Shown piece after piece: positions 27,733 to 55,674 of a stretch of DNA of 64,000 nucleotides. The position numbers and the translations under genes are program-made. The DNA is from Nemertoderma westbladi. Its lineage: Eukaryota > Animalia > Xenacoelomorpha. Numbering within the stretch: position 1 is the first letter of the stretch; each line of letters begins with the position of its first letter. The notes under the pieces are model-generated. The model did no database searches, was not told the DNA's origin, and saw nothing but the letters and a program-made list of their open reading frames with translations. The stretch spans positions 6,950 through 70,949 of the forward strand of contig JAUCBJ010007841.1 of NCBI GenBank assembly GCA_032718475.1. The letters run 5' to 3'.

Positions 27733-30396
27733 CCCTATCCCGGGGGGGGGGGGGGGGTATTTTTATGACGTATCCCGGGGGGGGGGGGGGTAAATTTACC
27801 TGATGCCATATAACAATGGGAAAATGTGGTAAAAAACAGGAAAAATTTATTTTCAGCCTCAAATACATGATATAAGCAAGGAAGTAACAATGTATCGCTT
27901 ATACATCAACACATTTTCCACATGTTACAACAAAATGGCCCTCATATGTTGTGCATACAAAATTGCCACATTTATCACATTTATTTCTGATTTTATTGTT
28001 CAAATTGTTTCTTTTCTTGAAGCCACGATCTACATCCTCCAAACACATGGCACACCGACCATATTCGAATTCGTCTTTCCTCTTCTTTGGAGCCACACCC
28101 TCATCACACTTCAGCACACGTTTCATTTTATTGACTACATTCGTTTGGAGTCCAATAGGGTGTTCCAGTCGCAACACAATGAAAGGTGTAACCAACTCCT
28201 TCCCCAGGAGCCAAGTGAACTCGAAATTGGAATGATTCTTCTTCTGCACTTCATTGTACAAGGTTCTTGCATTCGTCCGCACAGTGTCAAGGAGAAAGAA
28301 GTTGGCATTCAAAGTCCACCGCTTCGTCTTTGCCCTAGTAGATGCACCGATGGCAACAAGATCCACGACATCCACACCTCCTTTCATATGATCATAGTAA
28401 ACAATTGGTTCAGGTTTTAGCCTCTGGTCTCGAGACACACGCATTGTATCATACAACGTTGTGAGTGCAAGAACAATCTTGGTTCCGCTCTTCATCTCAT
28501 CTGCATAGGATATAAGCATCTTCTTTTCGTTGTAGCACCACTTCGTTGATTTTGATTCTCTTCCTGTGCTCTCCTTCGATGGAGCCTTCATCTCCTTCGG
28601 GATTCCTTTGCGATCGGACTTCAGGGTGCCTGTAACAGAGATTTTACGTTTGAGGCACCAATCGGCAATGCTCATCGATGTAAAGTACCTATCCAAAGCA
28701 ATGTTTCTCCCACTCAAACAATCCATCCCACCGACTTCAATCGCATTATTAACCAAGTACTCCGTATATTTGTCTGTTCCGGTTACGTAGTAGTTATCGG
28801 GTATGCCTGTTGGTTTCCCAGCATATGGCAGAGAGATGTAGGTGTATTGAACGGTTGAATCACAGAGGCTTCTGAAAAGCAAACCATACTTAGCAGGCTT
28901 GCTGGGATTATATTGTTTGAAGCTAATCTTTCCACGATAAGAATAAAGCGTTTCATCAATAGCCAAGTGCTGGGACGGTTTCCTGAGATGCAAGAACCGA
29001 CGATTCACACTTTCAAAAAAATTTCTGAAGGCTGCAAACCGGTCTTGACTCCACCGCTCTGCTCTTGTTTCTCCATCGTCAAACTGAACGATTCTCGTGA
29101 GGAAAGTAAACCGTTTCCGCTGCATGGTGGCAGAGAAAATGTCATTGGAACTTTCGTGGTACCACACATTGTCTATGTCTGTAGTGTTCAGCTTCAATGC
29201 TCCTCGTAGGTATAGTAAACCGAACCATGCTTTCATTTCAAGCAGTGATGCCAACTTGTATTGTGTCTTCTTATCGTTTTCCGTCAGTCGCTCGCCAAGT
29301 AATTCGTGGAGCGCTGATATTTTTCTGTTGGTGAACTCGACAATTTTCATCACTTCATCATCTGGAATCATTAGGCTCCATGTTTCAGAAGGGGAATTCG
29401 CGTTTCTCTCAGCTGTCCGAGTGGGACCACCACTGTGTGAGATGTTGATGGCAGGCACCCGTCCACGTCGCGATGCATTCTCTGCTTGCCCTGGCTTCAA
29501 TGTGCACCATTCGTACCTTTCTTTAGCTTTGTTCGTCCACACAAATGTTTCTTCGGGTTGGTCAGGAAGCCGATCATAATTACTAGAATCAATGACTTTT
29601 GTATAGTCTGAGAATTTCTGTTTCTTCTTTGGCGTTGCTGCTGGTTCATCGTTGTCCTCAGGTTCTGCATCTTGGTTTGGATCATCCTCCACGGTTACAT
29701 CATCAGTGTTGCCATCTTCGTCCAGAACTTCTTCATAATCGGAATCTCCTTCATCAGGGAATGCCGACACGCCATCATCAGCAAAGTTCCGATCTTCTTG
29801 ATAGATTTCTTCATAGAAATTAGCGATTAATTTGTCCACTTCTGCGGCAGTGAGCCGGCGACTTGTTGATGCCATGGTGTCAGATAATAAATAAACTATT
29901 TCTTGACACAGCACACAGAAATACAGAACTATGTAATAATGACAACACAGAAATAATAATAAAACTTCAGTTTATACAAAACTGCTGTATTTCTGCATTA
30001 CAGTATTTCTGCAGTTGGTACCGTAATATACAGTATGCAGTACTGGTACTGAGGATCATCTAGGCCTTTGGGATCTAAGTTGCCCCCCTGGTCCGGTAAA
30101 CCAGTGTTTTTTTTAAAAAAAAGCAGTATGGTTTGCACCGGCCTAAAATGATGAACGGGTCGAACCCTAATATGGACTACTTATAAAAAACCTCCAACCA
30201 CATCCGACAAAAGTGCCACCATTTCGTCATTTTTTGGTCAATTTTCTTGAAATTCGCAGAGAAGGTGCCTAATATATAAACAATAAAAGTCACAAAAAGC
30301 AGGAATGAAAAAATAAGTTCTTCGAGGTGAAAAAATGAATATTCTGCACCTAAGGTAAATTTACCCCACCCCCCCCCCCCCCCCCCCGGGATAGGG
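27733..30396 (-). mobile_element. Full-length piggyBac DNA transposon
   Basis: TTAA target duplications at 27729-27732 and 30397-30400; TIRs CCCTATCCCGGGG / CCCCGGGATAGGG; subterminal GGTAAATTTACC at both ends. Confidence 0.97.
27899..29875 (-). CDS. piggyBac transposase, 658 aa, uninterrupted
   Basis: Acidic N-terminus; DDD triad (AIDETL, LDRYFTS, KGGVDVVD); KQYNPSKPAKYG motif; C-terminal Cys-rich domain; ATG in ACCATGG context. Confidence 0.96.
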   Translation of the reverse strand: MASTSRRLTAAEVDKLIANFYEEIYQEDRNFADDGVSAFPDEGDSDYEEVLDEDGNTDDVTVEDDPNQDAEPEDNDEPAATPKKKQKFSDYTKVIDSSNYDRLPDQPEETFVWTNKAKERYEWCTLKPGQAENASRRGRVPAINISHSGGPTRTAERNANSPSETWSLMIPDDEVMKIVEFTNRKISALHELLGERLTENDKKTQYKLASLLEMKAWFGLLYLRGALKLNTTDIDNVWYHESSNDIFSATMQRKRFTFLTRIVQFDDGETRAERWSQDRFAAFRNFFESVNRRFLHLRKPSQHLAIDETLYSYRGKISFKQYNPSKPAKYGLLFRSLCDSTVQYTYISLPYAGKPTGIPDNYYVTGTDKYTEYLVNNAIEVGGMDCLSGRNIALDRYFTSMSIADWCLKRKISVTGTLKSDRKGIPKEMKAPSKESTGRESKSTKWCYNEKKMLISYADEMKSGTKIVLALTTLYDTMRVSRDQRLKPEPIVYYDHMKGGVDVVDLVAIGASTRAKTKRWTLNANFFLLDTVRTNARTLYNEVQKKNHSNFEFTWLLGKELVTPFIVLRLEHPIGLQTNVVNKMKRVLKCDEGVAPKKRKDEFEYGRCAMCLEDVDRGFKKRNNLNNKIRNKCDKCGNFVCTTYEGHFVVTCGKCVDV

Positions 30397-35347: not shown

Positions 35348-35857
35348 TGTTAGCTTATCCAATTCCGCTAACACAAACCCATAAAGTAAGCCGTTAAGCA
35401 ATATTGGGGGCCACGAGGTTGATTACCCAATCTCGTGTCACCCCAATAAAATGGGAAGGAGAAACACACAATAAGGGTCAGGGGCCACACCCCTGACCGG
35501 GAGAGAATAGCAGGAGTGAGGGAAACACTCCAAAGGGCGCCAACAGGGATATCAGCCAATGGGAGGGAGGCACCGGCTAGGTACAGTAACAAGGCCAACC
35601 CGTGCAATATAACCAGTTAACGGTAATCAGTTATTTCAGTTATCTCATTGTGTTGGTCGGTTTAGCTAGGATAGGACCGGAACTTTAATTACCGTTGCGT
35701 AACCACTGTGCAGACATCTTATTCTATATCTATACTATTATACCGGAGGACTTTATACAGCAATCAACAATTATCCACCTTTTACACACACACGGCGGGA
35801 ACGCGACGCGTAAATCAAAAACCGGATAAACCGGGATCCTTTGTGGATCCCGTCACA
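35348..35857 (+). repeat. 5' LTR of BEL element (510 bp)
   Basis: Differs from 55165-55674 at 2 positions by eye; TATA-like TATAAC at 35608 and Inr-like TCAGTT at 35636. Confidence 0.97.
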
Positions 35858-35927
35858 GTAATTAAAGTCAATCGTCCTTAAGTAATTAAAGCCTAGAACT
35901 CCAGCCAGCTACCGATCTAAAGAGGAG

Positions 35928-37459
35928 ATGAGTGACGTTACGCCAACGCGGACCCCGGAGGAAGACCCAACGATTCGCGAGGCCGTGACCAGACGGTATA
36001 GGCCCACGACGCCGGACCCATCGGTAACGGGTCATCCGGCACATCAGGATGAAGGGGGCCGTCTGGAGCCGGAGATCGAGCCGAGAGGAGCGGGGGCCGA
36101 GTTGAGAGAAGGAGAGGGCGAGAGGGACGGAGAAGAAGACGAGTCGACACGGAACGAGGGTCGACGTACCGATGTCGCCGGCCAGCCACAGGCCGAGGGC
36201 GACGAACGGCCCACCGAAACGGCGACGGTGGGGCCGACGGTACGACGCAGGACCCGGAGAGATGGGGGAGATGTCGGTACCGATGTCGCCGGCCAGCTAC
36301 AGGCCGAGGGCGACGGACGGCCCACCGGAACGGCGACGGTGGGGCCGCCAGTACGACGTCGGACCCGGAGAGACGGAGGAGAGGTCGGCGACGAGGACGT
36401 CGGGGTTTCTGATCGACTTCGACGGGCCTACAACGCAACCCGGAAACTACTCAAGGAGGCCAAGGAGGGGGCGAAGATAGATGAGGTACAGTTAACAACA
36501 GGACTAGGTGAGTCGGATAGACATTTTAGTTATCTAATGCGCTTCGGGCAGAGAGAACTGGCCAAGGAGAGAGTGAGAGGGGTTGCCGAGGAACTGTGTG
36601 ATTTATGGCGGTGTAGGGGTATGCAACCTAGTGTAGTGTACGTTGGGCCATACTTAGTCGATGCCCAGGGTATAAAATCAGTGGGTTGGAGGAGACCTGA
36701 GGAGGGCGAATCCGAGGTTGACCCCGAGGATTCGATCTCGTCGGTCGGAGGAAGTTCTGGGAAGAGGGGGAAAGTTAGTAGGTCGGGAAGGCGGAGGGAA
36801 TCCGTCGTAACCGATAAGTCTGCTACATCCTCCATAAAAGAAAGACGGGTGAGAGAGATAAATGCCACATACCATCTCGACCTGATAGCGCAAGGTCAGA
36901 GAGAGATAAATAGACGGTTAGAGGAGGGGAGAATGTAACTAGAGAAGGAATTGGTACTGATTAGAGAAACCGGAGAGAGGGCCGAAAGGGCCGCGAAAAG
37001 CCTTAGAGAGTGTGAGGAAATAGAGAGGAGGGAACAAGAGGAGCGCGAGGCGAGACGGGAGAGTGAACGCAGAGAGCGTGAAGCGGAACGCAAGGAGCAT
37101 GAGGCGAGAGAGGAAAATGAGCGCAAGGAACGTGAGGCGAGAGAGGAAAATGAGCGCAAGGAACATGAGGCGAGAGAGGAAAATGAGCGCAAGGAACGTG
37201 AGACGAGGGAGGAAAGTGAGCGCAAAGAGCGTGAGGCGAGGCGAAGGGAGGGAGCTAGGAGAGAGGCGGAATTGGCCGAACGGAACGCACGGGAGGGTCG
37301 GGAGATAATGGCAAGAGAGATGCGTGAGCGAAAAGAATTGGAAAGACAGCAAGGCGAGCTTATAGAGTACAAAACTAGACGTACGCGCGAATTGGAACTG
37401 GCGCGGGTGGGGGCGTCTGAGAGCGAGGCTGACTCGAAGATTTTCGAGGAGCCAAGGGC
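35928..37459 (+). pseudogene. N-terminal part of the BEL polyprotein (charged, coiled-coil E/R-rich), in-frame TAA at 36936, interrupted by Gypsy insertion
   Basis: ORFs 35928-36938 and 36951- share a frame; purine-rich composition same as BEL pol; resumes near 45014. Confidence 0.8.
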
Positions 37460-37705
37460 TGTGGATATATTTATTAATACCCCACTTACAGGGACCGCAC
37501 GATGTAAGGTTATATATTTTTATCATACAGTACATACATTTTTATTATGATATAGGGAGATGATTAGACATTCAGTTATTGCATTGTACTGACATTCAGT
37601 TATATGATACCGGATTCAGGGATTACATTATTCATACATTCAGTCATTCATTGTTATTGAGTTTTATATATATCCATTACCCTGGAAAGGGGAAGCCCAC
37701 ACAAA

Positions 37706-37723
37706 TGGTGACCCAGACGAGAT
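37706..37723 (+). promoter_or_regulatory. Primer-binding site, tRNA-Trp type
   Basis: TGGTGACCCAGACGAGAT matches 16/18 to the known tRNA-Trp PBS TGGTGACCCCGACGTGAT, directly after the LTR. Confidence 0.85.
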
Positions 37724-38188
37724 GCGACAGGATGCGAGCGATGAAATGTAGAGAAACTACTGAACAATGGTCAACACAACTAAACTTGGAAAATTGCATT
37801 CGGAACCTGTAAAACGACAATTATACATTGCTGCATTGTGTATGGTAAGACGACTGAATGCTACAGTGACGTATACCGTATAATAGCTACCCGGTATTAG
37901 GCCTACCTGCCTACTGACTCAATAAAATATCCAAACTACCGCAGTACCGGTAGGCCGTTAGAAAAAAAAAATACTCAAAAAAAAGCGAAATTTTGGTTCT
38001 AATAAGATTGTAATATTGCTGTATTGTGATATTGTAATACAGTAATAGGCCTGCTGTTGCATTATGATATATACGGACAGGGGCTGATACAACAATCTGC
38101 CTACTGCATACTGGCCTACCACCAGTTGGGAAACCTACCTTAACTGCCTACCTACTGCTCTACAACCTGACAAAGATAAAAAAAGAAA

Positions 38189-39367
38189 ATGAATTACGAT
38201 CACGTAAACAAATCAACTTTAGAAATGGCACTGGAGATTTTAAATGAAGGGGATCCAGATTACCATCCAGATAATACATCAAAGAAAACAAAAAGTGAAA
38301 TAATAGAGATATTAAAAATGGAAAACCAAAATGCTGTAAAATTGGCATTAAGTCATATCCACCAAACTCAAGTTCACATTCCTCAACCTCAGTCGAATAT
38401 ACCGTTACACAATGTTTCATCAGCACATACTGATCCAGATACAAGTAGTAGGCCTATAAAACTGCCGATTTTCTATGAGAAGGATACCCGTGTGTGGTTT
38501 GATCAAATTGAACAAATTTTGGATAACTGTAATGAAAATGTTAAAAAGGCAAGCTTACTTTCTGCAATACCTACCAATGTATTATTTGAAAGTGGTGCAT
38601 GTGTTACTGATAATTTTAACATAATCAAGGAAAGTCTAATAACCCACTTTGATGATAGTGCAGACAGGCGACTGAAACAATTACTTAAAGAACATTATTT
38701 AGGGGACACCAAACCTTCAGTTGCCCTCCGTAAACTGCAAAGGTTAGCACCCAACAATGAAAACATTGTTAAAATAAGATTTCTAGAAATTTTACCTGAA
38801 CCCATAAGGTTATCATTAGTGTCTCTAGAGGGTGTGTCATTAACTAAGTTAGCTGAAATAGCAGATAGGATGATGGAGAATATTCAACTAAGTACTCATC
38901 AAGGTGTATCAGCTGTACAGGTAGCCGCAGATAATGCAGTTACAAACCCATGGAGAGATGATATGGTAAGACAAATAAATAAGTTAACCCAAGCTGTAGA
39001 AAGTCTTCAAACACAAAATCATCGAGGCAGGTCACCTACAAGAAGTAGGAGTAACAATTATTATGGTCAACGAAGTCCATCAAATTCTTCAATCAGAAAT
39101 TATAGTAGACCACGATCAAGTTCACGTTCTTATAATCCAGCTGGAAAAGATTGTTGGTACCACTGGAGATTTGGACAAAAGGCAACTAAGTGTGCAGGTC
39201 CAGAGTATTGTTCATGGAGAATAAATCAACCAACTTATTATCGAAGTGGTGACTCTAATCATTCTAGAGAAGGTAGTGCAGGTATCCCACATCAATATAG
39301 TCGAGATAGTATACCTCATTCGGAAAACTCCCATTCTCCGACGGGAATGCGGAATCCGTCGGAGTAA
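38189..39367 (+). CDS. gag: Gypsy Gag (392 aa)
   Basis: KLPIFYEKDTRVWFDQIE, LGDTKPS, RS-rich linker and CWYHWRFGQKATKC knuckle. Confidence 0.92.
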   Translation: MNYDHVNKSTLEMALEILNEGDPDYHPDNTSKKTKSEIIEILKMENQNAVKLALSHIHQTQVHIPQPQSNIPLHNVSSAHTDPDTSSRPIKLPIFYEKDTRVWFDQIEQILDNCNENVKKASLLSAIPTNVLFESGACVTDNFNIIKESLITHFDDSADRRLKQLLKEHYLGDTKPSVALRKLQRLAPNNENIVKIRFLEILPEPIRLSLVSLEGVSLTKLAEIADRMMENIQLSTHQGVSAVQVAADNAVTNPWRDDMVRQINKLTQAVESLQTQNHRGRSPTRSRSNNYYGQRSPSNSSIRNYSRPRSSSRSYNPAGKDCWYHWRFGQKATKCAGPEYCSWRINQPTYYRSGDSNHSREGSAGIPHQYSRDSIPHSENSHSPTGMRNPSE

Positions 39368-42144
39368 ATTCAATTTATGTCACCGCACACCCAATAGGTC
39401 ATTTCTTAGCAGATAGTGGTACATGGTACAGTTGCTTACCATTAAGTTATGCCACTTCTGATTGTTATTCTCCTCCAGATTTTAATTTAAAGGCTGCTAA
39501 TGGAACTCCAATAAAAATTATAGCTAGAAAAAACCTTTCATTTACAATTCAAGAGTTTCCAAACCAAACATTTAATTGGACTTTCTTTATAGCTGAAGTG
39601 ACAGAACCATTATTGGGAAAAGATTTTATGAAACATTATAATATGCTGATTGATTGTGCAAATGATAGATTAATTCAATCGAAAGATATTATATACACTC
39701 GCCAATTTTGTACAACTCAACCTAAAACAAATTATGGTGATAACTTTTGTATAAACCATATCAAGATTGGTAATGAGTTATATTTACCACAGGTGACTAC
39801 ACTAATCTCAAACTGCAAAGATGTATTTAAACCAGTAAGTGCAGAAGAAGAAGTAAAACATAATATTAAACATCACATCATAACAAGTGGTATGCCAACA
39901 TATTGCAAACCAAGGCGATTATTTGGGGACAGATTGGAAGCTGCTAAAGAGACTTTCAATAAATGGCTCCAACAGGATATATGCTTTCGCAGTGAATCAC
40001 CATATGCATCACCATTACATGTTGCACCTCAACCCCATTCAAAAACAACACCTTACCGCAGTTGCGGTGATTATAGAGAATTAAATAAACATACAGTCCC
40101 AGACAGATATCCAATGCCAAATTTGAATGACTTACCAGCTGCTTTGCATGGATGCAATATTTTCTCTAAACTAGATTTAGCATCGGCATATATGCAAGTA
40201 CCAGTTGCGGAAGAAGACCAAATTAAAACTGCAATCTCTACCCCATTTGGTCTTTTCATTTTTCGAAGAAAGCCGTATGGGTTGCGCAATGCATCGCAAA
40301 CATTTCAGAGGATAATGGATGTAGCCCTTTATGGGTTGACTTTCATCTGGTGTTATGTAGATGATGTATTGGTAGGAAGTAAGACACCTAAGGAACACCT
40401 AGAACATTTGAAAATAATTTTCAATCGACTTGCAGAATATGGTCTACATTTGAGGATTGAAAAGTGTAAATTTTTCTATGATAAAGTGGAATTTTTGGGT
40501 GCAGAAATATCAAAAGATGGTATCAAACCATTGCCAGAAAAGTTAGAAGCGATCATAAACTACCAAAAACCAGAAAGTATCAAACAATTAAAACGACTAT
40601 TAGGTATGGCAGGATTTTACCATAAATTCATACCGAAATTCTCGGATATTGCATCACCCCTAACAGATCTCACCCGGAACTACAATAAGAAGTCAAAAAA
40701 CAATTTTCTTATATGGACAGATGTAGCTTCAGCAGCATTTGAGAAACTCAAATTTGCAATTTCGGAGAGTGTCACATTATCCTTTCCATGTAATAAGCCT
40801 GAATCAAAAATAGAACTTACTACAGATGCATCAAATACAGCAGCGGGTGCTGTGGTTCACCAAGTTATTAATGATGAACGTTTTCCATTAGCATTTTTTT
40901 CGGCTAAGTTTACACCGCGAGAACAAAAGAAATCAGTCTTTGACAGAGAGTTATTGGCAATATATTTATCCCTAAAACACTTCTCTTGGTTACTCGGTTC
41001 CAATATAATAATCAAAACAGATCACAAACCTCTAATACATATACTAAATATGAAAAATCCATCCCCACAGCAGACAAGGTGGATATCATACATTTCAGAA
41101 TTCACTACCTCAATCCAGCATATTTCTGGAAATTCAAACATAGTTGCAGATACGTTATCACGGACAACACAAACTGCAGCAATTATGGTTGACATTGATT
41201 CATCAATAGCTGATATGCAATTATCTGACCCTTCTCTAATAAGTTTTTTCGAAAAAACTACATTACCACTTCATGAATTGAAGACTGATGATAAAGTCAT
41301 TATGTGTGATAATACGAAAGGACATTTAAGACCATACATCCCATATGAAATGCGATTTAAATTATTCCAATATCATCACAATTTAGCACATTTGGGTTTC
41401 AACAAAACATACAAGCTAATTGCCGAAAGGTACATTTGGCCTAGTATGCGTAAGGATGTTCGGAAATGGTGCCGACAATGCATACGATGTCAAAAGGCTA
41501 AAGTTACACGGCACATTAAAACTGAAATTGGAAATATTGAAAACACTGATAGATTTCAGACTATTCATATTGACATTGTTGGAGAATTTATACCTTCCAA
41601 TGGTTATAATTATTTAGTGACTGTTATTGATAGATATACATGTTGGCCAGTAGCCATTCCAGTAAAAAGTATTGATGCCGAAACTGTTGTAAATGCCCTT
41701 ATTTCTGGATGGATCAGCATTTTTGGAGTACCACGTAACTTAATTTCAGACCGAGGAAGTCAGTTTGAGTCAAAGGTATGGGAAGAATTAATGAGGCAGT
41801 TGGGTATTCAACGCAAGAGAACAACAACATATCACCCACAAAGTAATGGTGCTGTTGAACGAATGCATCGCACTATGAAAAATGCTTTGCGGGCACACGC
41901 TGCAGATAAAAGTTGGTCACAGGCATTACCATTGGTGTTATTGGGTTTAAGAACTTCAATTACAAAAAAAGGTTATAGCCCTTCCAAAATGGTTTTAGGT
42001 GGAGTTGTAGATCTACCTGGACAATTTATAATCCCGGATAACCAAACAAAGACTCTCAAAGTTCCTGCATATATGGAGAAATTAATGTCTACAATAAGGT
42101 CGTTTGTAGCACCTGATCGGAAACACAATTCGACTTCAACATAT
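39310..42144 (+). CDS. pol: Gypsy Pol (PR-RT-RNase H-IN) in -1 frame to gag, interrupted by MITE after 42144
   Basis: FLADSGT protease, YVDD RT, TDAS RNase H, HHCC and DDE (IDIVG, SDRGSQF, AVER) integrase motifs. Confidence 0.95.
39322..39364 (+). promoter_or_regulatory. Putative -1 ribosomal frameshift signal
   Basis: GGAAAAC in the gag/pol overlap, followed by CTCCGACGG/CCGTCGGAG (9 bp) and CATTC/GAATG stems. Confidence 0.7.
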
Positions 42145-44019
42145 GTGGCGGTGAAAGCGAAAAGGTACCTTAAGGTGAAAATGTCGTTTTGAGAAAATCG
42201 CACTTAAAGAAAAATTAAATTTTCAAGTCAAAATTTTCAATTTTTTTATTTTCAATGTGATATATGCAGTTTTTAATGAGGAATCCAAATCTGTTAACGG
42301 TATGTTAACAGCTAGCTTAGTTTTGGAGATAATCAGCTTTGATTGAGAGTAGTCAGAAGTTTTGAAATTTAAATCTCATTCCCGATAGATATTATGTTGT
42401 TCTATGTAGATTTACTCTTATAAATTAATTTATATGCCTTATTATTCCAATAGAAAACTATCTTCCAGTTATTTTCAATATGTTTGCTTGTCAATCGGTC
42501 TGTCTGTCCGTCTGTTTGTCTGTTTATCTGTCAAGTGTTGTCAGTCATTTTATAAATTTTTAGATCTTGGCTCAGAAATTATAATTTTGATGGTATAAGG
42601 GTTTTCGAGGTCGTTAAACACGATAAAACATCTTAAAAATATTTTCGGGTAATGCAACCATCATTTTTGGTGCTATTTTGGACCCACAGAACGAAAAGTA
42701 CAAGTAAAAAAATGTCAAATTAAAAAATGTTGTGTTTCGATTGATAATTCCGAATGTATGCGGGTTTTTGAGGTCGCTGATCACGATAAAAAATGTTAAA
42801 AATATTTTTGGCAATACAACCATCATTTTTGGTGCTATTTTTGACCCCAGGACGAAAAGTACAAGTAAAAAATGTCAAATAAAAAATTGTTGTGTTTCGA
42901 TTGATAATTCTGAACGTATACGGGTTTTTGAGGTTTGTTGTTCACGTGCTGCTCGAAGTCCCAGACCAGATAGCTAGCTACCTCAGTTGTTCACGTGCTG
43001 CTCGAAGTCTCAAACAAGATAACTAGATAGCTTTGTTGTTCACGTGCTGCTCGAAGTCCCAGACTAGTCTACTATAACTAGCTACCTTTATTGTTCACGT
43101 GCTGCTCGAAGTCTCAAACTAGATAACTAGCTAGCTTTGTTGTTCACGTGCTGCTCGAAGTCCCAAACTAGATAACTAGCTACCTTAGTTGTTTACGTGC
43201 TGCTCGAAGTCCCAAATTAGACAACCATAGTTACCTTAGTTGTTCATGTGCTGCTCGAAGTCTCAAACTAGATAACTAGCTAGCTTTGTTGTTCACGTGC
43301 TGCTCGAAGTCCCAAAATAGATAATCATAGCTAGCTTACTTGTTCCCGCGCTGCTTGAAGTCCCAGACTAAGCTACCTTAGTTGTTCGCATGCTGCTCGA
43401 AGTCTCAAACTAGATAATTATCTAGCTTTGTTGTTCACGTGCTGCTCGAAGTCCCATACTAGATAACTAGCTACCTTAGTTATTCACGTACTGCTCGAAG
43501 TCTCAAACTAGATAACTAGCTACCCTAGTTGTTCATGTGCTGCTCGGAGTCCCAGACTAGATAAAAACCCAGCATAGTTGTTCACGTGCTGCTCGAAGTC
43601 CCTGCCTTAGATAACCATCCAGCTTAGTTGATCACGTGCTGCTCGAAGTTCCAGGCAGCATAGTTGTTCATTAGTTTGCTAATGTATATTCCTATTACAC
43701 ATTTTGCCCCTCAAGCCTCAACATCACAACACAACAACAGACCCACTCCGATTTAGCAAACTCACTTTCAAGATTATATTGTAAGTAATCCCTACTACTA
43801 TTAAAATACAACAAAAATTTTAAACGCGATTTACTCATAATAGTATATTTTCCATCTGGTTGTCTTGCCAATACTTAATTTCTAATAACTCTTGATGTAC
43901 TCATCCAATCAGGATGATTTATAGCTCATTAGAGAGCTGAGATGTTGGCCAATCACATGCAATATCTAACTCAAAAACCTCATTTTCACCTTAAGGTACC
44001 TTTTCGCTTTCACTGCCAC
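42145..44019. mobile_element. Non-autonomous TIR DNA transposon (1.9 kb) inserted in Gypsy integrase
   Basis: TIR GTGGCGGTGAAAGCGAAAAGGTACCTTAAGGTGAAAATG with inverse at 43981-44019; TSD ATAT (or TA, since the site is palindromic); removal restores STSTYVPKYMKDISHVWIR. Confidence 0.95.
42937..43670. repeat. ~49-bp minisatellite (GTTGTTCACGTGCTGCTCGAAGTCCCAAACTAGATAACTAGCTACCTTA), ~15 copies, preceded by a ~165-bp tandem duplication
   Basis: Read directly. Confidence 0.93.
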
Positions 44020-44662
44020 ATATGTTCCAAAATATATGAAAGACATTTCACATGTGTGGATTAGAAATGATCGTAAAAAAGGAAGTCTAGTTGATCGATA
44101 TACAGGCCCTTATGAAGTAATTGAACGGAATGATAAAACTGTCTCAATAAGCGTCAAAGGTATTTCAACGAAAATATCAATGGACCGGGTTAAACCTGCT
44201 TTCTTACAAATAGATGATAACAACAATTGGAATACCCATGAAAGTTCACAAAATTCGCAAACTGAAATAACTAACCAAAAGGTGATTGTACCGGGATCTC
44301 TATCGAAAACTGGGATCGGGACAAGTGAATCGAGAGAAACTCATACTTGCAAAAGACATGCTCCAAAGATTTTAAAACATAAGGTTGTTTGTGCACCTTT
44401 ATCCGATAGTTATTGGCCAGCGTTAATATTACCATATGATTCAGTAATTAATAAGAGACATTGTTTTCCTAATGAAGTTCCAGTCAATTACCTTGCCATA
44501 AATAAGTGTGGTTTTGTTACAAAGGATAAATGTGTAAAATATTCGGACTCATATTTTAGGGATCAGCACCAAACACGTAAATTAACACATGCTACAGAAT
44601 TAGCTCGAAACTTCTTGTCCCACAAACCGTCAGTTGTAAAACGCAGAGTCAAGTTTGTTTAA
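44020..44662 (+). CDS. Gypsy integrase C-terminus: GPY/F module plus PWWP-like domain
   Basis: RYTGPYEV...SMDRVKPAF, then KVVCAPLSDSYWPALI...VPVNYLA...GFV...KLTHATELA. Confidence 0.8.
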
Positions 44663-45013
44663 ATTATCAATGCAATTTATTCATTGAACATTTATTGATA
44701 TTGAAATTAATGTATATTTTTGTTTACTATTATATAAGTGTGAAACTATTTTTCTTGAAAGATTTTAAAAAAATAAATGTTCTATATTATTTTTTCACAT
44801 ATTGTATGTACAAATAGTATTTGTCTGCAAGAATTATATTTACAATGTTACTGTGAAATGAATGTATTAATTAATAATCTATAATGTTCGCAAGATCGCA
44901 ACATTAATGATGGTATCTCTAAGCTTATATATATTGCTTACACATTATTTTATGGTAATCTCCCATTTACTTATATATAAATATTTAATTTAATTGTAAA
45001 AAAAGAGTAATAG

Positions 45014-48000
45014 GAGAGTAATAGGGGGATTGCGAGTATCCCCAGTGGCGTGCGATCGAACAGAGAGAGGCAGGTTGACGTCGCGAGAGGGCGGACGAAG
45101 CGCCGAGCCCGATCAGAAGAGGGAAGAAGAACAGTGGAGTTTAACCGGGAGGTCGATGAGAGATCTCACGAGCCGGAATACTGCACTGAAAGGAGAAGAA
45201 GAGAAGACAGCAGAAGAAGTATCGCCGCGAACGACAGGAGAGCGAGGACGGATAGCGAGCCGTCGGTAGTTGAGATGGAAAGAGAAAGTCGGTGGGGTCG
45301 AACTTCGGGAGATTGCCGTCGTCCCGGAGAGACACGACCTGATGAGACGCGTTACGCGTCGAGAGAGGGGTACACAATGTACCGGCACGAAGACGAGAGT
45401 AGTAGGGGGGGTCAAAGAGGAACTTTCCGACGGGATATACCTACAGATCGAGAGTACGGTAGCCGCGGGGAGGATTATTCGAGAAGAATAAACTTCGATC
45501 CCTAGCAACACATACAGACTGTAGGACATACTGTAGGCCTTACTGCACATACCATAGGCCATGCTGACAGGAATAACGTAGACGATAGGATAGTGCGGAT
45601 GACGGAATTAAACCCGGAAGTCGCGGAGTACATACCGGCAGGTAGGCCAGAAGTTGATAGGCCTATACCGGTACCAGTACAGCAGTATGACTACAGCATG
45701 CAAGGACATAACATATACCCAGGGGAGGGGGGAATTATTGCGGATAGATGCATGGGCCCCAATATATTAACATCAACCCCAGTACCAAACATACCGGTGG
45801 GGGGGGGGGGGACAGGGTGACATTCCCCCATCGCAATATCAACAATATACCCCGATAGGAGCAAGAACAACGAGACCCTTGGATGGAAATAGGTCATGTG
45901 ACACAGAAATATGGAGGGGGCCGCTACCCCCAATGATATACCCAAGCCAAAGAAAGGCAGAAAATAGGACGGGCGGACCACACCCAACAGGAGAAACTAT
46001 ACAACATCCATCGAATCCATTGGAAGCGCAGGCGATGGGGATGGCCACGTTGATCGATGCATTAAAAACAAGGATCGAATTACCACCCGTGGAACCATTC
46101 AAATTCGATGGGAGTAGGCCGGAAGAATATCTCCAGTTTCGGCGTATGTATAGTAACGAAATACTAACAAAGAACTTGACGCAGGCGGAGTGCCTAAAGT
46201 ATCTGCAAGTATACACAGGAGGCCCAGCATACGACATCGTGAGGCAATATCAGGGCATAGAGGGCGGCTTCACGACGGCATGGCGGGCACTGGACAGGGA
46301 ATACGGGCACCCGGCCAAGATCATCAGGCAGACCCTGAGAGGCATAACATCGGGTGGCCTACAGGATAATCCCGTTAGCATTAAGACATTCGCGAACAAG
46401 GTCGAGAAGGCGCTAATCGTGTTAAAGACGCTAGACGCGCCATACGAACTCAACGCGTCCAACAACATCACCACGATAGCGCAGGCACTACCGATGTGGT
46501 TGCGCAACAAGTGGAGGAAAATCGCTTTCTCCACTCGAGATAGGAAGGGTGCGGAACCGGGTTTAGAAGAAATGTCAAGCTTCTTAAACTACGAAGCTGA
46601 ACTAATAACCGACCCAGTCTATAGCGAAGATAGCCTGGGAAAGGGACCGAAGACGGATTACCATAGACCGAAACCAGAGCACAATACGTCAAACGCATTA
46701 CCGAAGCTCAGGCAATCACTGCCATATGCAGCGACGCAGGGGACTGCAAGTCCACAGGTAGCCGAAGGTAAGACCACACCATGGAACGGACAGGGGAACA
46801 ATAACAACACGAATAAATATAACCCCAGTACGTCCAGTAGGCCGAACCCAAACAATAAGAATAGTAGGGACTTTGGTACAAACGCAGCTGCGATACGCAA
46901 TGCACTGTATAAGGAGGGCTACGACCCAAAGAGCAAATGCCAGCTACATACAAATGCGCTTCATCAAACCATGAACTGCAGGTACTGGCAAGCGCTACCC
47001 AGGGAAGATCAGGTAGAATATGCGGCGAGGAATGAGATCTGCTCGCGATGTGTGATGAGTGGACATAGAGCTAGGCAATGCAAGGAGACGCCGGTCAAGT
47101 TCGGTCAAAGGAAAGGCCAAACGATGGCAACGAGCACAGTAGGGACGAAGAAGAGAGGAACGGTGCTACTTGGGGTAGTACCTGTGCGAGTGATTGGAGA
47201 AGGCAATCGATCAGTAACAACACTAATGCTGGTTGATAGTGGAGCTGCCTTCACATTAGTCGAGGATTGGGTGGCCGAAGAAATAGGATTGAGAACGAGG
47301 CCAAGTAGAATGGCGGTAACAACCATCTCCAGCAAAGATGAGGTCCTGGAGATGAGAACCGGACGGTGCACCATCGCAGCAATAGCACCAGGATGCGACT
47401 ATGGGGCGAGCATCGACCCCATCCAAGTGATAGAGTCAATAAACATCAATGCCAGACGGCCAACCAACATCGAGGTCGAACAATATAAATTTCTGGATGA
47501 TATCGACTTCTCAATCCCAGAGGTGGACGTTAGGAAGGTATCCATCATAGTAGGAATGGACTGCCCAACGGCCCACGAAAGAATGCAAACGGTCTTCGGC
47601 GAAGACAAGCAGTGTGACCCGGTGGCGATACTGACACCATTCGGGTGGACGCTGAGTGGCCCAATCAAGAGCAAGATACCATTTAGGATGTCGGAGACAT
47701 CAGGATGCATGTTCGCGGGAACTATGCAGGAAATGAGTGATGAGAGAGCAGAGGAGCAGCTTAAAAGACTGCTCAGACAGGATTTTGAAGGATTAAAGGA
47801 GACCGGGGTCGGGACCTCGGTGGAAGACAAACAGGCTCAGCAGAGCGTAGAGGAGTCTATGAAATGCGACGAGGGGCGGTACACCATAGGAATGGTATGG
47901 AAGCTACCGAAGCTACCACTGCCCGATAATAGAGGGATGGTACTCACGAGGCTCCGCAAGCTGAAGCAGACACTAAAACGGAGCCCCGAGAAGAATGAGT

Positions 48001-51000
48001 ACATCCACAGAACGATTAAGAAGTACGTCGAGAAAGGATGGGCCGTGGAGTTACCGGTCGACGAACCAAACACGGACAGGACATATTACCTGCCACTCCA
48101 CGTGGCTTTAGACCCAAAGAAAGGTAAACTGCGGATGGTAGTTGACGCATCGGCAAAGACCAACGGAAAATGCTTAAACGACTATCTACTAGAAGGTCCG
48201 AACATATACAACTCAGGGATAGAGGTCCTACTTAGATTTAGAAATGGGAAACACGCCTTCACGTGTGACATAGAAGGCATGTTCAACCAAGTCCGTGTAA
48301 CGGAGGAAGATAGCGACAGTCAACGCTTCTTATGGTACAACGGTGACGAAGAACCGTCGATAATACCGACGTACAAGATGGTAGTACAGAACATGGGAGC
48401 CAAGTCGTCTTCATTTACGACGACTATGGCAGTAAGAGATACAGTGAAGGGGAAGGAGGATAGATACAGCACTAGGGCCGTCGATATGATTCGACGCGGC
48501 TTCTACGTAGACGACGGAATGGAGTCTGGAAATACGGTTAAGGAGATACTGGACACAGGGCGCGAGGTTCGCGACATCCTAAAAGGATCCGGCTTTAACC
48601 TGACCAAATTCCAATCCAGTTCGGAGGAATTTATCAAGGCGATAGGGGACGAGAGACCAGAATCGACTATGGATAATCCCACAACGGCCAAAGGGCAGGA
48701 CATGGCGAACAAGAGGACAGAATCTCAACAGAAGGCACTGGGAATCGTGTGGAACAGAGAGACAGATGAACTGAAGTACCAGCTGAGCCAGGAGGGCGCA
48801 GACATCCACACAAAGAGAGGCTATGTGTCATACATAGCAAGAATATACGATCCCCTAGGTCTAGCATCCCCACTATTAGTCACGGGGAAGCAGATACTCA
48901 AGAGAGTATACAAACTGAAGGATGAGTGGGATGTAGAGGTACCAGAGGAGATCAAGAAACAGTGGTGTAAGTGGACAGAAGGTTTGGAGAAGATGGGAAC
49001 ATACAACATGCCGCGAGTGTATTTCCCGGATGGGAACATGACGAATCTGGACTTACACATGTTCTCCGATGCGTCGTTGGAGGCGTACGGAGCGGCACTC
49101 TATTTAGTACAACGAGAGGGGGCTCACAAGCCCAGACTGGCCTTTAGCAAAGCTAAGTCAACGCCGCCAGATTCAGCATCAGTTCCCAAACTAGAATTGA
49201 CAGCTGCCAGACTAGGAGTTAGGGCCACAGCCTACCTAGTGGATACTATTCCCAACATAGTGGAGACACACTACTGGACGGATTCCATGGTAGTGCTTGG
49301 TTGGCTACATAACGAAAGGACGAGATACCCTATATTCGTCGCGAATAGGGTGGACGAGATAAGGGCGACCACAGAATTGGAAAGGTGGCACTACTGCCCA
49401 ACGGACGAGAACCCAGCGGACTTGTTATCAAGGGGCGTGGCACGCCACACTTTCTTAAAAAAGGAAGGATTGTGGCAACACGGGCCGCAGTTTCTGAGCG
49501 ACAAGGAGGCCTGGCCGCCGATGAGAAAGGTGGACCCGGGCTCAGGAGAGGTAGTGTCAGAAGGAGAAGAGGGAGATTCAGAGGGAGAAGAGATATACTC
49601 CCAGATGGTGAGGGAGATAAGGGACGTGCAACCTAAACCAGAAGAACTGTGCGATAACCCGACGGATAAACTCCTCAGCTACAGCTCTAGTTGGTATAAG
49701 ACCAAGAAATTAGTGGCGTACTGGAGAGCCTTCGGGAATTTCCTCGCGGGAGTTGGCAAAGGCAAGAAGATCAGGACAACCATAGATCTGGAAGGAGCGG
49801 CCAAAGCAGTCATCCGCTATGAACAACGGAAGAGCTATGGCGACGAGGTGGAACGCGTCGGTAAACAACAGCACCTTCGACGGGACAGCGAGCTGATCAC
49901 GCTGTCGCCACAACTTAATGACGACGGGATTCTAGTAATGAATTCCAGGGTGGGATACAACAACAGCATAGTCGTACCACCGAAACCCATCATCATTCCC
50001 ACAGGATCGCCAATAGTCCACCAGATTATCTGGGACTCCCACAAGTCGATATTGCACGGGGGCACCAACCGAACCCTTACGGAGATACGGAGGACCTTTT
50101 GGGTCAAGCAGTTGAGGAAGAAGGTAAAAGCGGTAGTGGGGCAGTGCCAGACCTGCCGACGAGCGAAGAAGGAGCGAGCCATACAAGAGATGGCACCACT
50201 ACCAGCGAGTAGAGTAAGACAGCACGACCCTCCATTTACACATTGCGGTGTGGACATGTTCGGGCCGATAAAGATCAAGGTGATGCGGCACACGGAGAAA
50301 CGCTACGGTATTATCTTCGTATGTAACAACACGCGGGCGGTAGGGATAGAACTCGCCCAAGATGCAACCGCATCAGCATTTATTAATGCATTAGAAAGGT
50401 TCAGAGACCGCAAAGGTGGGACGATCGCAGTAATGTACTCCGACAGCGGAACCAACTTTGTGGGAGCAGAGAACGAGATGGCAGAGGCCTTGGACATCTT
50501 GGAAGGGGAGGAAGTCAGGGCGGCCATGAGACGACGACAAGTAAAGTGGGAGAGAAGGACGCCGTATGCACCACATACACTAGGATGCGTCGAGAGACTG
50601 GTGGGCAGTTCGAAGCGTCTCATGACGAAGTTAATGAACACCCACATGGTCACCGAGGACGTCTTGAGAACAGTGCTTGCGAAGTGCGAGGGTATCATTA
50701 ATAGCAGACCGCTATATCCGGAGAATGATGACCCTGAGTCATTAGATGTGCTGACGACCAGCCATTTTCTAATGGAAAGGCCAGCGACCATCGATATGCG
50801 GGGTGTAGACCCAGATGACATTCACTCCCGCCAGAGTTGGAAGGTCGCTAAAGCGATAAGCGCAGAATACTGGAGAAGGTGGGTTGAGGAATACCTACCC
50901 CGCTTCACAAAAGAAGCAAGTGGAGGAAGTCGAATAGGGAGTTAAGAGAGGGCGATCTCGTAATCGTCACGGATAATACCATCATCAACAACCAGTGGCG

Positions 51001-51148
51001 GTTGGCGAGAGTTGTAGGCACTTACTCCGATGAGGACGGAAGAGTCCGATCGGTAGAAGTGCGGATAGGGGGCAAGATAGGTGCGAAAGACAGAAAAACC
51101 TACAGGAGAGCTGTAGGGAAATGCTGTCTATTAGAAGGGGCACCTTAG
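45014..51148 (+). pseudogene. BEL/Pao Gag-Pol (capsid-like, Zn knuckle, protease, RT, RNase H, integrase); 1688-aa open segment 45879-50945
   Basis: FKFDGSRPEEY gag, CSRC...H...C, LVDSGA, FYVDDG, FSDAS, NPADLLSRG, GVDMFGP, SDSGTNF; TAG at 45503; frameshifts at G-run ~45800 and ~50905; terminal KW...GDLV...WRLARV domain ends at 51148. Confidence 0.95.
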
Positions 51149-51259
51149 ATCGTTTGTTAGAAAGGAGTTTAGTCGTCCAAGTTTTGGACTGAGGGGGGTG
51201 GGATAGAGGGCGAGACGCCCTTCCCACACATAAAATAAAAATAAAATAAATAAAAATTA

Positions 51260-51900
51260 GAGTTAGTTAGTTAGTTAGGAGTTAGCTACAAGGTACGTAG
51301 TACCTAGAGCTAGTTAGTTAGTTAAGAGTCAGTTAGAAGGTACGTAGTACCTAGAGCTAGTTAGTTAGTTAGGAGTTAGTTAGAAGGTACGTAGTACCTA
51401 GAGTTAGTTAGTTAGTTAGATAGGAGGTACGTAGTACCGAGAGTTAGGAGTCAGTTAGTTAGAGGTGTTAGAGAAGTAGTAAGAGGGTACGTAGTACCGG
51501 TGGTTAGTAGAGTTAGAGGTTAGTAAGAGGGTACGTAGTACCGGTTAGTAAGAGTAGAGTTAGAGTAGTTAGTTAGAGGGTACGTAGTACCGGTGGTTAG
51601 TAGAGTTAGAGGTTAGTAAGAGGGTACATAGTACCGGTTAGTAAGAGTAGAGTTAGAGTAGTTAGTTAGAGGGTACGTAGTACCGTTGGTTAGTAGAGAA
51701 GGTTAGTGGAGTTAGAGGTTAGTAAGAGGGTACGTAGTACCAGTTAGTAAGAGTAGAGTTGGAAGTTAGTAAGAGGGTACGTAGTACCGATAGTTAGTGG
51801 AGTCAGAGAGTAGTAAGAGGGTACGTAGTACCGCTAGTTAGTTAGAGGTTAGTAAGAGGGTACGTAGTACCAATTAGTAAGAGATAGAGGTAGAAGGGTA
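51260..51900 (+). repeat. Internal tandem array in BEL: ~13 GGTACGTAGTACC cores separated by GTTAG/GAGTT-rich spacers
   Basis: Read directly. Confidence 0.9.
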
Positions 51901-52354
51901 TACATAGTATAGATATTAGTCAGTAGTTAGTAGCGAGAGGGGGGCATATGAGTACAGTTGGATAGATCGTGTAGGCCACGCGACATATACTGCTGTACTG
52001 CACAGGCCCATAGAGTAGGTCAGAATGTGGATTATGAAATAGAATAATCCATAAACAGTAAAGTAGTAGAATTAAGTTAAATCAAAATAAATAGAATAAA
52101 TAGGGCTAAAAATTACAAATTATGGTAACAACAGGGAAGTTGTTCTGGAACATAATTAAAGCAACGGACAGAAATTGCAAATAGGGTACATTTGTTAGCT
52201 ACAAAATTAAGTAATAGAAATTTAGGCTAAAAGGCGTAGTTAGATAGGAAATAGGCCATTCTCGAACTGTGCAGACCATCAGAAACTTATCACTCATCTG
52301 TATTGCGCCTTGGTAAGGCACCACCTTACAGGTGAGCGAGTGAGAGTGTTTGGA

Positions 52355-54912
52355 ATGGCGGGAAAACTGATCAGAAAGAGAAAGGCGGAACAAGGAGGAA
52401 AGGAGATACTGGTGGATTTCACCAAGAGGCATCCGGAAGTGAAGACGAGAGGATACTACGAGAGGTTGGGAAAGGGTCACGCGGCACGGGCGCTGCAGGA
52501 CCACTTCCGGGAGATGCACGAACAGCGGCTGGTCGGGACCTACGGGACGCCGTCGCTGGACAACGCGATCTTCCAACACTTCCACTACGTGGTGAAGGGG
52601 GACGAGGCGAAGTTCGGGATTCCGAAGTACCCGAGGGAGTCGCCGAAGAAGGATTGGAAGAGGTTTATAGAGTCCGTCAACAGGGGAGGATATATGATCC
52701 TAGACGACGAGGGAACCGTGGAAGACGAGGAGGGTTCGAGACGAGGATCAGCGGGGTCGGCCAGGACCATACTCCTACATTTGGCCGCGCCAAATGGGGA
52801 CATTTTCTTATTCAACCTAGGAACGTACGGGAGAAAGGACGGGCCAAAATTAAACCGGTTGCCGAAAGCGTGCAAGTCCTGGTAAGAGAGAAGTCGACGA
52901 CGAAAGTGGGATCGGCGATTCGCAAGGACGCGGAGAGAATCATCGGTCCGGACGCCACCAACCTCCTGGATATGCAGAAGGTCTTCATGGCTATGACAGC
53001 ACCAGATGGGTTGGGAGTAGTCGGGAACACAGGCCAATGCGGGCCGGTGGCAATGGGCCAGCTATTGGGGCTCGTATGCCACAAACCGATGGACTAGGGG
53101 AAGTTCAGGGAGGAATACGGTGCAGAACTAGCGAACTCGCTAAAGTGGGGAGCGAGACCGGGAAAGCAAGAGGTGTATCAATTCCGAAGAGAAGCGATAA
53201 AGGTATATCAGAAGCGATATATCCTGCAGGAAGATTGGATAATGATAAGTTTGCTTAACTTATTCATGACCGTGGTTATCGAGAGGGAACCAGCGGCATT
53301 TCTGTTATCGGGATCACCCCTAAGCTACAGGAGAGCCTTTAAGACGGCCTTCGACGGTCTGGTAGACCACCCGGGGCTGAAGGGCGAGTCGGTGTACTAC
53401 AACAGCCGACATCTGATAGACGGGGAGATAGATACGCCGTATCAGAGATGGGAGCAGCTAGAGACAGATAGACGAGAGGCAAAGCGACTGGAAGAAGTCG
53501 CGAGACGGAAAAGGATAGAAGCAGAGGAGAGGGAGGAGGAGGCCAGGACGCAGAGTTACGGCTTCGAGGAACAGGCAGGCTTAGACGAACTTCGTTGGAC
53601 TTCATCAGGGAGTTCGGGGGAGTCTCTAGGGCGAGAACTGGGATGGACGGTGGGATCGCCGAAACAGTCGACGTCGGGGTTGCAAGCGATGCCCATACCA
53701 GCGGGCGCCGAAGGCGACCAACCGCTAAGGAAGTTTGGGGAGCTAGAGGGATGGAGAGCTACGGGCGAGAGCCAAGGCGGGAAGGGACATAGTGGATCCA
53801 TCGGGATACCGGGGTTGGAGCCACTGCCAGAGGAGGACGAAGACGACGACGAGTTCGGAGAGATACCGCCCATCGAGAGGATTGGCCACTCGGACACGGA
53901 CTGGGTTGGCGGGAGGGTGGTGACGGCCAGTGGGGCGAGGGCCTTCTGGGATAGACCAGGCAAGCGGGCCTGGGTGCACGAGGAGCCGGCAATGGATTTC
54001 GCGGGGAGCACTATCAGGTTGGGCGAGCAACCGGGGACGGCACCACGGGTAGTATTCGGGGAGACGATGCCCGAGAGGGGCGAGGAGATCGACGTAGACA
54101 GGGACACTAACGTGGAGAAGTTCGCCTACCAGCGACTCCACAGACCGCGGAGATCGCTTGGGACGAAAGACGACGTGGGCGGGAGACATTGGTACTCGGT
54201 TGCGATGGATTACTGTGGGAGACAGACCCACCAGGAAAGGAGGTGTTTGTACCGATTCCAAAAGGGGACCTTTTGTCTCTACTGCCGCGAGTCGAGCCAC
54301 AGGATGGGGGCGTGTCCACAGTTGCATAACCGATGTCCGAAGTGTAACTTCCAGGGACACTACGGACGCCAGTGCGACTGGATGGACGATGAAGAGAAGT
54401 TCAGAATCTTCGAGGAGTGAGCCGACGTCGGGGCCATGACGCGGCAACGCATGAAGGCTCAGGAGTTCAAGAGGGGTTTCTTCCTTATCAATCAGGAGGC
54501 TCACTTGGAAATCATAAAGCGGAGGTTACCGTTTACCTATCAAGAGGTAGCAACGGCGGCGTCGTATGCCGGGGTGATAAATACACAGAGGTATTTGGAC
54601 AGGTGGACGCCACAGAACCGAGGGGAGTTTAGGGATTTCTTGGCGGAGCACGTGCCGCGAGCAATGAAGATGATCTTATGGGACGCCACCAGGGGGAGAC
54701 AACAGGGCCACTCGGAGGGGCCACCCGCGAAGCGATATCGGGAGCTGATAACACCAGCACCCAAGGAGCCAACGACCGGGATCAGTAAGGAGGTGGCGGC
54801 GAGGGTCCGAAGACAGAAAGCGGATCCCAGAGGAGCGGTAGTGACCAGGAAACGACCCAGGGAGGAGGACGGCAAAGGGAAAGACTTGAGGTGGTTCCCA
54901 AAGTCAGGGTGA
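52355..54912 (+). pseudogene. Extra BEL ORF (~850 aa reconstructed): DEDDy 3'-5' exonuclease-like domain, acidic linker and CCHC zinc knuckles; one frameshift (~52865) and two in-frame stops (53095, 54418)
   Basis: ILDDEG (Exo I), LLHLAAPNGDIFLFNL, KVGSAIRKD (Exo II), LLDM, LLG...K, QKRYILQED (Exo III); CLYCRESSHRMGAC and CPKCNFQGHYGRQC. Confidence 0.72.
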
Positions 54913-55126
54913 GAACAGAGTGGGGCTAAAGTGGCGAAAGTGTTGGGGAAACAAAAGTCGTGTGAGAGGAGCGCACGATCGGCCCGACATGGGACGCCAG
55001 GTGAACCGGGTAGCATTATCATACCCATAGTGAGCGGCCTGGAAAGCTGGCTCCGAGAGAAAATAGTTCCACCCCACACCCGATGCTAGATCGGGATCCA
55101 GCGGAATTGTAGCGCACTTTAGGAGG

Positions 55127-55164
55127 ATGCTATCTTCTCACCGGGAAGATAGCATGGGGGGGAG
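55127..55164 (+). promoter_or_regulatory. 11-bp hairpin immediately followed by the polypurine tract
   Basis: ATGCTATCTTC / GAAGATAGCAT stem, then GGGGGGGAG abutting the 3' LTR. Confidence 0.85.
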
Positions 55165-55674
55165 TGTTAGCTTATCCAATTCCGCTAACACAAACCCATA
55201 AAGTAAGCCGTTAAGCAATATTGGGGGCCACGAGGTTGATTACCCAATCTCGTGCCACCCCAATAAAATGGGAAGGAGAAACACACAATAAGGGTCAGGG
55301 GCCACACCCCTGACCGGGAGAGAATAGCAGGAGTGAGGGAAACACTCCAAAGGGCGCCAACAGGGATATCAGCCAATGGGAGGGAGGCACCGGCTAGGTA
55401 CAGTAACAAGGCCAACCCGTGCAATATAACCAGTTAACGGTAATCAGTTATTTCAGTTATCTCATTGTGTTGGTCGGTTTAGCTAGGATAGGACCGGAAC
55501 TTTAATTACCGTTGCGTAACCACTGTGCAGACATCTTATTCTATATCTATACTATTATACCGGAGGACTTTATACAGCAATCAACAATTATCCACCTTTT
55601 ACACACACACAGCGGGAACGCGACGCGTAAATCAAAAACCGGATAAACCGGGATCCTTTGTGGATCCCGTCACA
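55165..55674 (+). repeat. 3' LTR of BEL element (510 bp)
   Basis: Near-identical to 35348-35857; followed by TSD TTGAT. Confidence 0.97.

Follow-up and report, generated by a model that had tools for sequence, protein, structure and literature searches.

The window, i.e. the whole 64,000-nucleotide stretch of Nemertoderma westbladi DNA that was analysed, contains two nested LTR retrotransposons. The outer one belongs to the BEL/Pao group; the inner one is a Ty3/Gypsy (CsRn1-like) element whose integrase ends in a PWWP-fold domain, encoded at 44372-44620 on the forward strand. The features of the locus are:

35348..55674, forward strand: BEL/Pao LTR retrotransposon hosting the nested Gypsy element
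37460..37703, forward strand: 5' LTR of the Gypsy element, with TGT...ACA ends read from the sequence
37706..37717, forward strand: primer-binding site of tRNA-Trp type, 11 of 12 bases agreeing with the CsRn1-clade motif in PMC2582038
38189..39367, forward strand: gag, with DUF7041 and a CHCC knuckle (the knuckle at about 39152-39211)
39310..42138, forward strand: 5' piece of pol, with protease, RT, RNase H, integrase zinc finger and DD(35)E core
42139..44025, no strand assigned: inserted DNA transposon with its target duplication (the transposon itself at 42147-44017)
44036..44203, forward strand: GPY/F (SH3-like) module of the integrase, from a weak Pfam SH3_Tf2-1 match (E 0.037) and the structural model
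44213..44365, forward strand: linker of about 50 residues, of low confidence by pLDDT and probably disordered
44372..44620, forward strand: PWWP-fold domain, from Pfam, ESM Atlas, AlphaFold, Foldseek, VIA-align, shuffled controls and cage mapping
44414-44416, forward strand: tryptophan of the methyl-lysine cage
44489-44491, forward strand: equivalent of LEDGF F44, a tyrosine here
44576-44620, forward strand: C-terminal helix of the PWWP domain
44639..44662, forward strand: RVxF-like basic C-terminal motif and stop codon
44663..45004, forward strand: 3' untranslated region, AT-rich, with a purine run at its end

The pol of the Gypsy element follows the Ty3/Gypsy order protease-RT-RNase H-integrase, with HHCC and DD(35)E motifs; it starts at 39310 and overlaps gag in the -1 frame. 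The DUF7041 match of gag is below the Pfam cut-off (E 3.5e-5), and the left edge of the 5' LTR was placed by the TGT and by the end of a flanking GC-rich frame. No second LTR copy, i.e. no 3' LTR of the Gypsy element, was found within the window. The integrase is interrupted by a non-coding DNA transposon of 1,871 bases, bracketed by an 8-base target duplication (42139-42146 and 44018-44025); 36 of its first 37 bases form an inverted repeat, and it carries an internal 49-base tandem array. The pol frame of this copy enters the insertion and meets a stop at 42192, so that the frame 43970-44662 beyond it is a severed tail. The first-pass annotation had taken an ORF at 44036-44662 as the unit; that ORF has no start of its own, and the quoted residues lie in the forward frame 43970-44662. 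A separate gene starting at 44036 was likewise rejected, the frame being the tail of pol cut off by the element at 42147-44017. Split within its integrase by the 1.9-kb DNA transposon and lacking a 3' LTR, two defects that the first-pass annotation does not mention, the window copy is dead; the fusion protein can no longer be made from it.

Several other features of the window are recorded here in their own right. The DNA transposon at 42147-44017 is high-copy, its 37-base inverted repeats begin with GGC, and it is perhaps a Merlin- or Mutator-like element. The BEL/Pao element at 35348-55674 is young and has very high contig depth; its LTRs (35348-35857 and 55165-55674) are 99.4% identical and it is flanked by a 5-base target duplication. 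It has a long region after pol, with tandem arrays at 51258-51930 and frames at 52244-54912 that have no Pfam match and are possibly an env-like or accessory gene. Ahead of its gag-pol lie long charged coiled-coil-like frames (35886-37550 and 45014-45505), split by the Gypsy insertion, the left part of which (35886-37550) had no Pfam match. On the reverse strand, 27899-29971 is an open frame of 690 residues for a piggyBac-type transposase (DDE_Tnp_1_7, E 7e-47), low-copy by contig depth; 9595-11796 is an open frame of 733 residues that matches a cold-shock domain weakly (E 7.8e-5) and has 30-base repeats at 11009-11745; and 61440-62243 encodes an actin maturation protease-like C-terminal domain (E 2.5e-26), probably an exon of a host gene. 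The Rfam scan of 35000-57000 gave no match, and ARAGORN found no tRNA gene.

The tail of the integrase is modelled as two folded domains separated by about 50 low-confidence residues, with pLDDT below 50 at residues 66-85, 93-112 and 114-116 of the tail. The first is the GPY/F module, a five-strand domain with 44-56% identity to three relatives. The second had been described from the letters alone as PWWP-like, with five strands and a C-terminal helix. Searched directly, the segment 44372-44659 matches PWWP_KDM3B at E 2e-4 and PWWP (PF00855) at E 8.3e-4 in Pfam; the family is thus named, but the PF00855 score of 20.2 bits lies below the gathering cut-off of 25.6. PWWP clusters rank on top for the window segment in the ESM Atlas (0.91, 192 of 256 features). 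The segment alone has no match among PDB sequences at E<=10, and a word-based search of longer proteins with it returned eight candidates, none at E<=1. The case for a PWWP domain therefore rests on the relatives and on the fold.

Structure searches agree on that fold. The AlphaFold model, for which only the nine element-borne domains were aligned (mean pLDDT 76.5, pTM 0.63), has four strands of three or more residues, a short fifth strand and the C-terminal helix, which bears out the architecture first proposed. Every one of the Foldseek matches listed for this model is a PWWP-containing entry; the top match is 2daq, the second PWWP of NSD3 (E 2e-4, TM 0.65). In VIA-align the best 12 are PWWP entries throughout (best Z 10.2, rmsd 3.3 over 92 residues), while Tudor and chromo domains reach a Z of 6.6 at most and the best chromodomain among the matches listed 5.6. 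A profile of the element family, searched against the PDB, retrieves 51 sequences at E<=0.001, all of them PWWP proteins by name or domain. Pfam, the Atlas, the PDB profile search, Foldseek and VIA-align thus all assign the PWWP fold, and the claim of such a domain at the end of a Gypsy integrase is borne out. The source of the domain is less sharply marked. The best single-domain profile match is the NSD second PWWP (45.6 and 44.5 bits in two profile searches), LEDGF/HDGF reach 42.2 bits against 44.5 for NSD3-PWWP2 with the tighter profile, and DNMT3B and MSH6 top the VIA-align ranking, unlike the profile and Foldseek rankings, which are led by NSD PWWP2. With only about 2 bits between NSD PWWP2 and LEDGF/HDGF, the ranking of matches singles out no donor.

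The same fusion is found outside the window. A search with the integrase core returned 113 proteins, of which the two best, P0001 and P0002, are the sole carriers of a precomputed PWWP; they score 47.2 and 53.6 bits against Pfam PWWP and were retrieved without the PWWP segment. PWWP is absent from the other 111. A tail search of 1.84 billion representatives added at least six further relatives among the 150 matches listed: P0118, P0122, P0142 and P0194 exceed the Pfam PWWP cut-off, P0128 scores 22.6 bits, and P0117 was recovered by a profile built in the analysis. In whole-protein scans 6 of the 8 relatives pass the Pfam PWWP cut-off; scanned alone, all nine domains, that of the window included, match Pfam PWWP at E<=0.1 and none is named as a Chromo family. 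The order integrase-GPY/F-linker-PWWP is common to at least eight relatives, so the segment is not private to the window. Neither of the outcomes named in the first-pass annotation as refuting it, i.e. no PWWP/Tudor-like fold or no conservation in other copies, was thus obtained. The relatives are single-member clusters from three collections (JGI, NCBI and Logan), and their fusions are open and in frame.

Since the six later relatives were found through the window tail, P0001 and P0002 alone were obtained independently of it, and the chance control used a profile of these two, both retrieved through the integrase core alone. This profile scores the window segment at 13.3 bits, against a maximum of 8.7 for shuffled segments (943 of 1000 shuffles reported); the profile of all eight relatives scores it at 27.9 bits, against a maximum of 6.0 (984 of 1000 reported). 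A screen of all 275 collected proteins revealed no additional PWWP-bearing member, and a homolog search among proteins of 1,977-5,000 residues gave ten matches, none with PWWP. No relative was seen in the viral contigs or the prokaryote genomes scanned, no match in BFVD at E<=0.001, and no cluster joining integrase and PWWP in the ESM Atlas (clusters of 50 or more) queried with P0118, where the best score was 0.84. The metagenome scan gave two loci from 144 candidates, which were set aside as host-type PWWP genes without integrase. Both (L001 504-650 and L002 3721-3867) are GC-rich eukaryotic loci with a host-type PWWP after a short helical domain, and no integrase frame was seen in either.

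Four DNA runs were compared with the window: X1 and X3 come from one sample, possibly the one from which the window derives, X2 from a different sample and study, and X5 is the fourth. At the insertion, exactly 1,879 bases are absent from single contigs of X1, X2 and X3; in X5 the coding region of the element is not covered. A single X1 contig spans, uninterrupted, the stretch from the integrase core to the PWWP region and shows 7 differences from the window over 2,789 bases; a single X2 contig shows 9 over 3,303 bases. Contigs of both runs link 45004 back to 37502 in the LTR, as a 3' LTR would. Contig depth is about 80-104 over the Gypsy element and about 10-25 for short contigs in its flanks; read loosely, as depth is not copy number, this would point to a small, recently active family with a few near-identical copies.

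These data bear on the view that the domain is a neutral passenger, a decaying relic or an artefact of assembly or read-through. The window copy would fit such a view, being dead and having the most diverged domain, one that falls under the Pfam cut-off. Against it stand the open, in-frame fusions in eight relatives from three source collections and the single contigs, from two samples and two studies, that run from core to domain. This explanation is largely refuted, and very little credence is left to it.

In phylogenetic trees the PWWP-bearing elements keep together. In the RT-RNase H tree they make up a single branch (4 of 47 rows, SH-aLRT 99), as they do in the tree of integrases (8 of 129 rows, SH-aLRT 80), and the window element branches first within it in both. 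The trees are quick searches without bootstrap, rooted at the midpoint; the RT-RNase H tree holds 47 chosen sequences, from which P0008 was dropped for its short overlap, and P0128, which has no integrase core, was omitted from the integrase tree. Under this midpoint root, and in trees without a named CsRn1 reference, the PWWP branch adjoins the bulk of the related pols. The window element shares 56-57% identity with three full-length relatives over RT-RNase H and 48-50% over integrase. PWWP identity is lower, 18-24% between the window and its relatives and 21-46% among the relatives themselves; the fold is thus kept at 18-46% pairwise identity, with the window domain the most diverged. As the PWWP bearers occupy one branch in two trees, one capture is likely, and the domain was likely taken from a host chromatin protein. 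On these sequence comparisons, the simplest reading would be that the domain was captured once, long ago, and has since changed faster in the window's family.

The PWWP domain sits between GPY/F and a terminal RVxF-like motif. The RVxF-like, basic end of the protein (44639-44659) that the first-pass annotation had pointed out is real and is seen in the sequence. A strict RVxF lies near the C-terminus in five of the nine PWWP-bearing proteins, and 14 of the 32 relatives that have a recognisable tail but no PWWP carry it too, within their final 40 residues. The motif is therefore an older, clade-wide trait, and the idea that it came with the PWWP capture was rejected on the same count. Across the pols, 30 of 113 have RVxF within the last 40 residues, against 102 of 2,869 internal windows (3.6%). 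Motifs of the RVxF type are PP1-docking motifs; the enrichment at CsRn1-like integrase ends may mark a clade-wide link between integrase and phosphatase.

The methyl-lysine cage gives a more divided picture. In LEDGF the cage consists of M15, Y18, W21 and F44, and the Y18A change lowers methyl specificity more than nucleosome affinity (PMC3663649). In the window the tryptophan is kept, the F44 equivalent is a tyrosine and the Y18 equivalent is missing (a one-residue gap or an aspartate), so that its family has two of the three aromatics when LEDGF Y18/W21/F44 is taken as reference. An X3 contig is identical to the window over 44380-44619, which makes the unusual cage a trait of the family rather than decay of this copy. 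The full three-aromatic cage is present in P0002, P0118, P0122, P0142 and P0194, i.e. in five of the eight relatives and five of the nine domains, and is incomplete in the other four. Net charge is positive in eight of the nine domains and is +8 in the window. The earlier description of a degenerate cage thus holds for the window's family but not for the lineage. With a full cage in five of eight relatives, the lineage as a whole looks, by its residues, like a methyl-lysine reader; in the window's family, nucleosome binding likely goes with a weak or altered preference for marks, if its cage is a guide.

An in-frame order of integrase core, GPY/F, linker and PWWP is conserved, with the PWWP fold, in nine diverged families on a single branch. 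The slot is the one in which chromoviruses carry their chromodomain (PMC5053271). The mechanism that we favour, with reasonable though far from full confidence, is that the PWWP domain tethers the integration complex to nucleosomes, in cage-intact members presumably to H3K36-methylated ones. The domain would stay on the mature integrase; its basic face would grip nucleosomal DNA and its cage methyl-lysine; and the tether would bias the landing sites of new copies, as chromodomains and LEDGF do. Counted against this explanation are the one visible insertion site, which lies in another retrotransposon, the incomplete cage of four of the nine domains, the divergence of the window domain and its score under the Pfam cut-off, the support of only 80 in the integrase tree, and solved PWWP domains that bind H4K20me (2l89) or an H3K79me3 peptide (3qj6).

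The domain might instead bind chromatin without choosing sites, either in general retention of the pre-integration complex or, after cleavage by the protease, in a role on the element's own chromatin. Cleavage could take place in the low-confidence linker of about 50 residues, the nucleosome affinity of PWWP domains comes mostly from DNA (PMC3663649), and a fold kept while four of nine cages are incomplete fits binding that is independent of the mark. Plain DNA binding, however, would not need the full cage found in five of nine diverged families, and in MAGGY the equivalent slot holds a site-selecting chromodomain (PMC3350952); we regard this alternative as unlikely.

A further possibility concerns where a site-selecting domain would lead. 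The visible insertion site of the window copy is inside a BEL retrotransposon and not in a gene body, as might be expected if the domain were, in the manner of the chromodomain, a safe-harbour device that sends insertions to repeat-rich or intergenic chromatin by way of extragenic H3K36me2, of H4K20me or of some other mark, rather than tethering them to gene bodies as LEDGF does. By sequence and in Foldseek alike, the top match is the second PWWP of NSD proteins, whose function is called "underexplored" (PMC10955146), and the PWWP of Pdp1 binds H4K20me. Yet a single insertion that has survived tells of selection no less than of targeting, LEDGF/HDGF come almost level with NSD3-PWWP2 (42.2 against 44.5 bits), and H3K36me binding is described for most of the solved structures among the matches listed. 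This explanation appears improbable. Returning to the tether, its furthest-reaching form would make this the first retroelement lineage to encode its own H3K36-methyl reader on the integrase and to aim insertions at active chromatin, the strategy of HIV and LEDGF within one element, with a mark preference retuned or dropped in the window's family; this is put forward tentatively, as somewhat less likely than not.

PWWP domains mostly read H3K36 methylation, the mark by which HIV reaches active genes. The integrase-borne readers described in the literature considered here are chromodomains (PMC5053271), which send elements to silent chromatin, and PWWP tethering is known as a service of the host to lentiviruses (PMC5053271, PMC8149907). 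One survey suggests that fusions of active-chromatin readers (bromodomains) to transposons are rare owing to the harm that such targeting does to the host (bioRxiv 10.1101/2021.11.30.470311). In the fly, LTR elements favour H3K36me3 regions; a host PWWP tether has been proposed there without data, and the main text of that report names no PWWP-integrase fusion (PMC10018349). No earlier report of such a fusion was found among the matches listed in the openly accessible literature pairing PWWP with retroelements. The conserved fusion is a real and apparently undescribed variant of the chromovirus design. With a built-in reader and with intact and altered cages side by side, it poses the question of whether a PWWP can set insertion preference alone, and a PWWP-bearing lineage makes the evolutionary persistence of active-chromatin targeting directly testable. 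If the proposed targeting is true, the lineage would offer a natural series of cage-intact and cage-altered integrases for asking whether a transposon gains from active-chromatin targeting.

Among known systems, the CsRn1 clade is the closest in backbone. CsRn1, PwRn1 and the AgCR elements share with the window element the tRNA-Trp primer site, the CHCC gag, GPY/F and the -1 gag/pol overlap; the primer site, CHCC knuckle and GPY/F are described as clade features (PMC2582038, PMC3630058). A 4-base target-site duplication is a further mark of the clade; the 3' end at which it would be read is lost from the window copy. For clade members the account in PMC2582038 reports no chromodomain and mentions no reader, whereas the window element has a PWWP. 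Capture of host chromatin modules as such has parallels in the Chromo, PHD, SET and SNF2 fusions of transposons (bioRxiv 10.1101/2021.11.30.470311) and in the DNMT-, MBD- and DAM-bearing retrotransposons (bioRxiv 10.64898/2026.05.21.726589). The main text of the former names no PWWP fusion (it has two unrelated mentions of PWWP; its figure and supplementary table of 823 fusions may hold one), and that of the latter does not mention PWWP. The host domains themselves, i.e. NSD2/NSD3 PWWP2 (4rxj, 2daq), LEDGF/HDGF and DNMT3B, are alike in fold and cage motif, at about 11-23% identity to the window domain.

Chromoviruses (e.g. MAGGY and the plant group II) likewise fuse a Royal-family reader after the GPY/F of a Gypsy integrase, and in group II chromodomains the first aromatic is absent, as is usually the third (PMC3350952), which parallels the cage loss in the window's family. 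The differences lie in the reader, which here has a PWWP fold and is no chromodomain (Z 10.2 against 5.6); in the backbone, which is CsRn1-like (CHCC gag, tRNA-Trp primer site); and in the expected mark, predicted to be H3K36me and not H3K9me. LEDGF/p75 and HIV-1 likewise link a PWWP to a retroelement integrase, and the cage aligns with LEDGF M15/Y18/W21/F44. The PWWP that serves HIV is part of a host protein, which is bound through an integrase-binding domain (PMC5053271, PMC8149907); here the element itself encodes the PWWP, on one polypeptide with the integrase that it would guide.
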